The notes under the pieces are model-generated. The model did no database searches. It worked only from the letters and a program-made list of their open reading frames with translations, and had not been told where the DNA came from. A stretch of 64,000 nucleotides of DNA from Octopus vulgaris (Eukaryota), in contig OX597826.1 of assembly GCA_951406725.2 (NCBI GenBank), forward strand, positions 14,074,001 to 14,138,000, in the 5' to 3' direction. Both the position numbers and the translations under genes were made by a program. How positions within the stretch are numbered: position 1 is the stretch's first letter; each line of letters opens with the position of its first letter. Shown piece by piece: positions 22,874 through 47,134 of the stretch.

Positions 22874-23278
22874 TGGCGCAGTAGTGGTTGTGTGTTAAGT
22901 AGCTTGCTTACCAACCACGTGGTTCCGGGTTCAGTCCCACTGCGTGGCACCTTGGACAAGTGTTTTCTACTGTAGCCTCGGACCAACCAAAGCCTTGTGA
23001 GTGGATTTGGTAGACGGAATCTGAAAGAAGCCCGTCGTATATATGCATAAATATGTGCGTGGGTATGTATATGTTTGCGTGTCTGTGTTTGTCCCCCCAA
23101 CATAGCTTGAAAATCGGTGCTGGTGTGTTTACGTCTCCGTAACTTAGCGGTTCGGCTAAAAGACCGATAGAATAAGTACTAAGCTTACAAAGAATAATTC
23201 CTGGGGTCGATTTGCTCGACTAAAGGCGGTACACTTACATGGCTGCAGTCAAATAACTGAAACAAATAAAAGAAAAAA
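22874..23278 (+). mobile_element. SINE family B
   Basis: Colinear with 16489-16900; A-rich tail. Confidence 0.9.
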
Positions 23279-23430
23279 AGTGTTACAATATTACGGAGAT
23301 GTACTTGCATAGCGAGTGACTTGATCTGAGATCGTGTGCTGGAACGAAAACAATTGCAGCGTGGAAGGTGTTTATAAGCCATTTAAAAAACGCACAAAAC
23401 CATTAGATTCACTTCAACATTTAAATTTAA

Positions 23431-23480
23431 TTTGTCAAAATATTTTCGTCGCTTGAGACCGCGACCTGTTCACTGACAAA
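23431..23480 (-). ncRNA. Type-I hammerhead ribozyme with G3-C8 swapped core
   Basis: Minus strand: uuuguca GUGAACA g gucgc-ggucucaa-gcgac GAAA auau UU ugacaaa; perfect 7-bp stem I and 5-bp stem II, palindromic AAUAUU stem III. Confidence 0.8.
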
Positions 23481-23489
23481 GCTTTTACT

Positions 23490-45945: not shown

Positions 45946-46272
45946 TTAATTGTTTGTCGTAGACCCGTTAAGAAGTGGCTTGTATTTTGTAATAAAGAGA
46001 TTTTCTTTACTTATTCGTTGTCTCGAGGTTGTATCGTCCCTAAATTGGTAGAGGGGGAAAATTCTGAAGTTTGGTGTTTTTTTGTTGGCGCAAGTATCTA
46101 TGTGTTGGCTAAAAGCTATTTTTCTGTTTTGGGGAATTTTTATCTGGGATCTGTGCAGGGCCATTCGTTTACGCAAACCATTTTTTGTTTGGCCTATGTA
46201 CTGCTCTTGACACCCGGAGCAGGTTAGTGAGTATATTAGGTTCTCCGAAGCACATGTGAAGTTGCTTTTCAC
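45946..46272 (-). CDS. GIY-YIG endonuclease domain of the Penelope-like element (open fragment)
   Basis: NFTCASENLIYSLTCSGCQEQYIGQT..LRKRMALHR...KENLFITKYKPLLN. Confidence 0.85.
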   Translation of the reverse strand: MKSNFTCASENLIYSLTCSGCQEQYIGQTKNGLRKRMALHRSQIKIPQNRKIAFSQHIDTCANKKTPNFRIFPLYQFRDDTTSRQRISKENLFITKYKPLLNGSTTNN

Positions 46273-47134
46273 TGTAAACCGTTGTCCCTGTTTGAAGGAG
46301 AACTCTGATCCCTCAATTAGTTAGTCGCATATCCCGCAATTGGGTCTTCCTAATTTTTTTTACTGTCGGCTTCTGTGTTGAAGAGTGAATTCGGGCTTGT
46401 GTAAGGAGACTTTTCATGGATCTAGGCTGTCTTTTGCTTTTTATGATCGTGTGTGTTTGGAGGATTGTGTTCATTCTGTGGTCTTTTTTTAGGAGGGGTA
46501 TGTTGTGGAGGATGGTGTCGAAGGCTTCGTTATTGAGAGGGTTGTGTGTGGAGATGTATGGTAAGGCTTTTGGTTGTAAGTTTTTCTTTGATTTGGGATG
46601 TCTCAGTTCCTTGATGTTAAGTTGAAGGGCACGTTGAATGCACTTGTCAATAAGTGAAGGTGGATAGTTCCTGGTGATTAGGGTATCTTTTAGTTCTTGT
46701 AGTCGTGTGTCTCTGGTGTTTGCGTTAGAGACTATAGTGCATATCCTTTTTGCTAGATTGAAGGGGATTCATGCCACCCCAGACACACCAGGATGAATAT
46801 CCCCTTCAATCTAGCAAAAAGGATAGTTAGAGACTATAGTGCATATCCTGTCAATATAAATATTCTCCTGAATTGAACTGAGACTGCCAGCCGCCACTGA
46901 CCATTCAAAATACGACCATCAGGGCACTCCCAGATTCTCCCACCCCCCCCCTTTCCTCACCAGCCTTCTTCCTCTACTACCCTACCAAGAACTCACAACG
47001 ACCTCCAACACTCAAATGCAAACAAGGGAGTCAGAGAAAGGCAGAATGCCACTTAAATCTGAACACTACTATAGAAATATTCTTTTAAAAAAACTTTTCT
47101 TCTAATTTTTCTAAATTTAATTATTTAATCGTTA

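Follow-up and report, generated by a model that had tools for sequence, protein, structure and literature searches.

Minimal type I hammerhead ribozymes have been described in the pseudo-long terminal repeats (pLTRs) of Penelope-like elements (PLEs) by Cervera and De la Peña in 2014 (PMC4209133). A related motif was analysed here in a stretch of 64,000 nt from Octopus vulgaris (OX597826.1), called the window below, and positions given without a locus name are those of the whole stretch. By its sequence, this is a minimal type I hammerhead motif located in the pLTR of a PLE, in which the core pair C3-G8 has been replaced family-wide by G3-C8, and which probably still cuts itself, slowly, after U17.

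The likeness to the described PLE ribozymes extends to the pLTR location, the additional nucleotide that separates position 9 from 10.1, the G10.1-C11.1 pair, the occurrence of UU cut sites, a short palindromic stem III suited to dimers and the many solo and inverted copies; dimer action has been proposed for those ribozymes (PMC4209133; review PMC6765202). In contrast to them, the octopus motif carries G3-C8 instead of C3-G8, its extra base is G and not H, and its stem I has 7 bp as compared with 4-5 bp in the Schistosoma families (PMC4209133). Natural U3-A8 core variants are also on record (Perreault 2011, PMC3088659; Schistosoma PLE Cercyon, PMC4209133); in these, too, a change at the 3-8 tertiary pair is compensated, one instance being in a PLE with about 1,300 matches (PMC4209133). 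However, U3-A8 is reached by two transitions that keep the pyrimidine-purine order, whereas G3-C8 takes two transversions and reverses it. An experimental parallel is the PLE PAc (Poseidon) of the anole, in which a single C3G or G8C change kills cutting and the double change partly rescues it, the protein being required; uncut RNA is the main template there, and reverse transcription starts inside the open reading frame (ORF) at two sites bounding a tail (PMC11167929). The same pair of the same kind of ribozyme is concerned, and both elements show two 3' ends and a tail from an internal start. The anole double change is a laboratory mutant, whereas G3-C8 occurs here naturally, in a family whose long ORFs are open, and the ribozyme overlaps the ORF in the anole element, whereas it lies in the pLTR 55 nt upstream of the ORF start in the octopus (PMC11167929).

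PMC3884650 also refers to an engineered G3-C8 variant. No natural G3-C8 hammerhead was found in a literature search that left most subscription journals and figures outside its reach, among them the study of PLE hammerhead variants by Lunse et al. (2016). Natural U3-A8 and engineered G3-C8 cores are already published; as far as the literature covered allows, the novelty would consist in a natural, family-wide and phylogenetically polarised G3-C8 core within a known ribozyme and setting.

The motif in the window and its predicted fold

Hammerhead positions follow the standard numbering scheme, which is general knowledge and is consistent with the papers cited. The motif is encoded on the minus strand, read from 23480 to 23431, the plus strand holding its complement only, and consists of stems I and II around the core, with the open end in stem I:

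23474..23480, minus strand: 5' strand of stem I (7 nt), in perfect pairing with 23437-23431
23467..23473, minus strand: core G3-U4-G5-A6-A7-C8-A9 (G3 at 23473, C8 at 23468, A9 at 23467)
23466, minus strand: extra G between A9 and G10.1, also a G in the related loci L155, L162, L163, L164, L186 and L188
23448..23465, minus strand: stem II (5 bp, G10.1-C11.1; arms 23465-23461 and 23452-23448) with an 8-nt loop
23438..23447, minus strand: G12-A13-A14, palindrome A15.1-AUAU-U16.1 and U17 (GAAA at 23447-23444, U16.1 at 23439, U17 at 23438)
23431..23437, minus strand: 3' strand of stem I, pairing with 23480-23474

The core reads GUGAACA and departs from the literal CUGANGA at positions 3 and 8 only. 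The predicted cut falls at a UU site, between 23438 and 23437. Both stem I and stem II were recovered by RNAfold, with an energy of -14.7 kcal/mol (z=-2.93) that was equalled by 4 of 200 shuffled sequences. Stem III is formed by the palindrome AAUAUU; its closure in a monomer costs +5.4 kcal/mol for a single pair, so that no stable monomeric stem III is expected, and in co-folding of two copies the palindromes pair (-30.7 vs 2 x -14.7). No head-to-tail tandem array of hammerheads occurs in the window.

A first-pass annotation of the same DNA had reported the 7-bp stem I, the 5-bp stem II, GAAA, UH and the core GUGAACA, all of which are borne out by the letters and, for the stems, by RNAfold; its elements were right, but it had left out the minus-strand orientation, the extra G at 23466 and the palindrome A15.1-AUAU-U16.1. 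It had also predicted that consensus searches would miss the motif. Rfam gave indeed no match in the window at the gathering score and no hammerhead at E<=10, but it equally missed two relatives that retain G8, namely L163 (C3-G8) and L276 (U3-G8). The Rfam miss is thus not due to the swap alone and is uninformative about it.

Positions 3 and 8 in the family and among its relatives

A DNA search of the octopus genome returned 2,650 candidates, of which 40 were scored; over about 197 nt, these shared 96-98% of their letters with the window copy. An exact search for the family motif that allowed any base at positions 3, 7 and 8 gave 7,244 genomic matches, and none with the reversed control. G3-C8 accounted for 6,609 of them (91%), and the remainder comprised 225 matches without G3 and 410 with G3 but without C8; among the first 100 of the 225, 11 carried C3, all of them with C8. 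Alignment of 101 copies to the window gave a similar picture, with G3-C8 in 88 and loop 2 as the most variable part. U4 G5 A6, A9, G12 A13 A14, A15.1-U16.1 and H17 were each kept in 98-101 of these copies, which had been retrieved with a whole 141-nt stretch including the core and were hence selected on it. The stretch was also present in sequencing runs (contigs) of four coded organisms. Consensus sequences built from loose ends spelled the G3/C8 core identically in the runs of organisms B, C and D, and, among the rows listed, one consensus line (8 records, run X14) had C at position 3. Since G3-C8 lies outside CUGANGA, searches based on this consensus undercount hammerheads by whole families, in the present case by about 6,600 motifs in one genome.

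About 2% of the copies were G3-G8 (35 of the first 100 of the 410 rows), several times the rate of G-to-C change at position 3, and these were spread over subfamilies (e.g. L026, L031, L220-L267). G3-G8 and U3-G8 were considered as evolutionary intermediates and rejected: in a 123-copy alignment, the 18 G3-G8 and 4 U3-G8 copies shared no private marker and carried 5' variants of several subfamilies, and two of six U3-G8 matches belonged to other, older families.

The direction of the swap can be read from the relatives. A sister family with 1,312-codon ORFs, 57% identical in protein over the reverse transcriptase-endonuclease (RT-EN) part, has a hammerhead in the corresponding location; this one shows C3-G8, the extra G and UU, and carries C at position 9. 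The fourth pair of stem II, G-C in the window copy, is A-U in sister families. A pattern demanding Y3 and G8 with the same flanks gave 174 genomic matches, most of the 100 listed being C3-G8; in the 30 loci that were read, most belonged to older related families, in which the downstream ORF start resembles that of the sister family; stem I begins with an imperfect pair in the commonest of them. As an unbiased test, a descriptor free at positions 3, 8 and 9 was applied to the whole set of 58 metagenome loci with related proteins. It located a motif just behind the ORF in five (C-G in L163, L164 and L186; U-A in L162 and L188) and C-G motifs in four loci with weak protein matches (L209, L212, L213, L214), no locus showing a mismatched 3-8 pair. 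The other 49 loci, many of which end near the ORF, gave no descriptor match, and the background was 2 matches in 433 kb of shuffled sequence.

In a protein tree of 21 rows (midpoint root; L187 was left out as too short), the six G3-C8 elements formed one clade (100/100), with the C3-G8 element L155 as its sister (100/100) and the C3-G8 element L163 as the next branch (87/89). C3-G8 in both the sister and the next branch implies that G3-C8 results from one derived double transversion, and a compensatory nature of the swap relative to the homologous C3-G8 ribozymes of the sister families is therefore supported by sequence comparison. A count of pairs in alignment A4 (15 of 15 rows paired at 3-8) was discarded as independent evidence, 12 of the 15 rows having been chosen by the pattern demanding Y3 and G8. 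The 3-8 pair has presumably been kept since the core requires Watson-Crick pairing between these positions, whichever the bases. If so, the natural set of 3-8 core pairs (C-G, U-A and now G-C) would be completed in a successful animal retroelement, and the pair would matter rather than the letters.

The inferences of the first-pass annotation that computation can test all hold. The repeat family with a GUGAACA-type consensus that it postulated emerged from the family search for which it had asked, with G3-C8 in 6,609 of 7,244 matches; the natural double-compensated change agrees with the homologous C3-G8 motifs of sister families; and the rescue of activity by compensatory double changes, which it gave as known, is matched by the partial rescue of an engineered PLE hammerhead by C3G/G8C (PMC11167929). 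The supposed pLTR end at 23280-23480 corresponds to an element copy at 23290-23484, and the full arrangement pLTR-ORF-pLTR, with the motif in both repeats, was recognised in element L148.

Other hammerhead variants were met among the same loci. A9 is changed to C in the hammerheads of the sister family, a young one (L153:1843 on the minus strand, L155:1637 and 6225, L150, L152) and, separately, in the metagenome locus L162:2497, together with U3-A8; the extra G is kept in both. A change to C has thus recurred at core position 9, which is normally invariant. The motifs of L209 and L212-L214 are C3-G8 minimal hammerheads with palindromic spacers, on contigs that match the PLE protein weakly. A different PLE family of the octopus genome (L091:7403 and L096:1403, both minus strand; G000:C2:171.24-171.26 Mb) displays U3-A8, no extra nucleotide and a 5-nt spacer, and has a 764-codon RT/GIY-YIG frame and an inverted pair; a further U3-A8 motif was seen at L091:5496 and 2041.

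5' ends of copies and the question of cutting

The presence of the extra G and of a palindromic stem III implies that the ribozyme would be weak and dependent on dimers or on protein. Catalytic activity is likely, and the following course of events is proposed. Transcription would begin about 22 nt upstream of stem I. Stem III being too short to form by itself, cutting would depend on a tandem transcript with two copies or on the protein of the element, and would be partial. An RT starting inside the first ~95 nt of the ORF would copy only the 5' end, giving rise to thousands of copies of about 150-215 bp like that of the window, most of them from uncut RNA and a minority from the cut 3' product. 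We give even chances to the proposal that this natural G3-C8 hammerhead works in the germ line, and that a share of the copies begin at the cut site as the RT ran off a self-cut RNA end.

The 5' ends of copies bear on this point. A census was made of junctions between copies and (TA)n, in which 134 rows were scored by hand and 15 repeats of the same junction were dropped; position 0 is 23437, and an end at 0 joined to the T of (TA)n reads as -1. The 119 junctions, called by hand in TA-joined copies only and possibly biased by microhomology, fell into -12..-2 (17), -1..+10 (76) and +11..+18 (26). Equal windows contained 17 (-12..-2) and 68 (-1..+9) ends, a step of about fourfold (p=2e-8) with the best single change point at -1; 18 junctions lay at -1/0 and none at -2. 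This step at the predicted cut site is an indirect sign of cutting in vivo. It provides a way of testing for in vivo cutting by PLE hammerheads and for the use of cut RNA as template and, if the proposal is true, copy 5' ends would be a general, assay-free readout of such cutting.

Several considerations weigh against a cutting ribozyme of this kind, in addition to the limits of the census. On one strand, 383 TA-joined 5' ends lay within 30 nt before the core and 42 around the cut site, the two counts having different anchors and their ratio being rough; most copies start upstream of stem I, hence most templates were uncut. PLE minimal hammerheads are slow in vitro (PMC4209133), and cutting is dispensable for insertion in vitro (PMC11167929). 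The extra base is a G, outside the published consensus CUGANGAH. The swap is a single evolutionary event on the tree, no C3-G8 occurred among the first 100 of the 225 non-G3 matches, and no intermediate lineage between C3-G8 and G3-C8 was found in the 123-copy alignment, which leaves the path of the double change unseen. Finally, the G3-G8 copies exceed the plain transversion rate, which may reflect a hotspot of mutation or a benefit to templates that stay uncut.

A first alternative, held to be unlikely, is that the motif is a hammerhead by descent which no longer cuts: the fold would be retained, or just passed on, as a part of the 5' untranslated region with a structural or protein-binding role, and the step in 5' ends would reflect stalling of the RT in stem I. 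Stem I spans 0..+6, exactly where the ends accumulate, and uncut RNA is the main template. Catalytic mutants of the anole element insert normally in vitro, and no RNA reads ending at its cut site were found (PMC11167929); Naiad elements thrive without canonical hammerheads (PMC8557442). However, stalling at structure is not apparent at the GC-rich entry of stem II, where a single end was found at -10 and none at -11, and the ends stop sharply at -1/0. Moreover, the other core positions are all unchanged in the family, and the two transversions restore exactly the 3-8 pair.

A second alternative, which we hold to be improbable, is drift: the two changes would have become fixed in a single source element while selection was absent, the restored pair being coincidental. 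It is compatible with the single event on the tree and with the sister family, which tolerates another core change (C at position 9), and since copies decay without selection, copy number adds no independent proof. On the other hand, positions 3 and 8 are complementary (C-G, U-A or G-C) in every family-level motif obtained with the free descriptor, and two specific transversions without any other core change are unlikely by drift. A chance look-alike or an assembly artefact, for which the lack of an Rfam hammerhead match could be invoked, is refuted by the number of matches against an empty control, by the runs of four coded organisms and by homologous motifs behind related ORFs, Rfam also missing the two G8 relatives.

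Where copies begin at their usual start, upstream of the cut site, a non-genomic G was found in 18 of 28 copies ending there, and all 38 run-on copies had C or T in that position. By analogy with copies of LINEs, this G is what a cap would leave, and would fit a capped transcript start. A branch-point-like CTAAC and a run of pyrimidines stand before the element start, YAG|ATGCAGCACG (L148:3195-3225, L061-L090), which may be both transcription start and intron end. A spliced intron end at CTAAC...YAG (cf. D. virilis Penelope) is the less likely reading, since the copies ending there have one additional G preceded by various bases, a better fit to a capped start than to a spliced exon; contigs showed no spliced joint there.

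The parent element

The hammerhead belongs to a short element copy, 91% identical to both pLTRs of L148:

23290..23484, minus strand: short PLE copy, 3' part of the pLTR plus ORF-start tail, without about 13 nt of the usual 5' start
23290..23382, minus strand: first 31 codons of the PLE ORF (ATG at 23382-23380); the same start leads into the N-terminal domain in L148
about 23350-23290, minus strand: optional tail between two common 3' ends, part of the ORF start

Two kinds of 3' ends were seen in family copies, with a tail of about 60 nt (16 of 30) or short (14 of 30). Copies are mostly found inside (TA)n, where they are often accompanied by an inverted partial copy placed head to head. The head-to-tail tandem units of non-LTR retrozymes were absent, copies being solo or head-to-head inverted.

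Upstream of the motif, beyond about 1 kb of DNA rich in microsatellites, a GIY-YIG 3' end and RT fragments were reached. Of 2,140 candidates in a protein search, 150 were scored; these yielded 254 matches, which form two main groups at about 75-95% and 60-64% identity. The G3-C8 motif lay about 1 kb behind a long ORF in 7 of 16 fetched stretches (L145, L146, L147, L148, L157, L159, L160), and L149 and L158, from the same protein group, gave no descriptor match for the motif. L145 contains an open frame of 1,025 codons with GIY-YIG (PF01541, E=1.8e-5) and a CX3CxxC linker; its RT motifs were identified by eye, Pfam giving no RT match. In L148, whose ORF is frameshifted, the ATG lies 92 nt after G3. 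The best database protein match is listed as a protein of Octopus vulgaris and is 58% identical.

A single ORF with RT and C-terminal GIY-YIG, the pLTRs, inverted partial copies, the tail and (TA)n targets identify the parent, by sequence features, as an endonuclease-containing (EN+) PLE. It shares the C-terminal GIY-YIG, CX3CxxC linker, (TA)n targets, tandem and inverted copies and tail with the clades Neptune and Nematis (PMC8557442), and differs from them in DKS for DKG and in a tail of about 60 nt as against 30-40, the comparison being made with the published description of the clades. From its linker, which fits the form CX2-5CxxC, it may be of Neptune or Nematis type. A tandem pair at C2:171.24 Mb was rejected as a further pLTR-ORF-pLTR example, its ORF belonging to the different PLE family.

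In the window, a SINE-like repeat (22876-23279, plus strand), so labelled by its look and its recurrence in other loci, directly adjoins the 3' end of the element, and a decayed ORF fragment of the other PLE family, 65% identical over 359 nt, lies at 45968-46320 on the minus strand. Asn-rich frames ending in a GIY-YIG-like segment in L008, L027 and L092 are probably 3' ends of yet another PLE family. Beside an element copy, L051:1571-2117 (plus strand) holds an uninterrupted 182-codon frame, possibly a processed retrocopy, which we take to resemble a dCMP deaminase.
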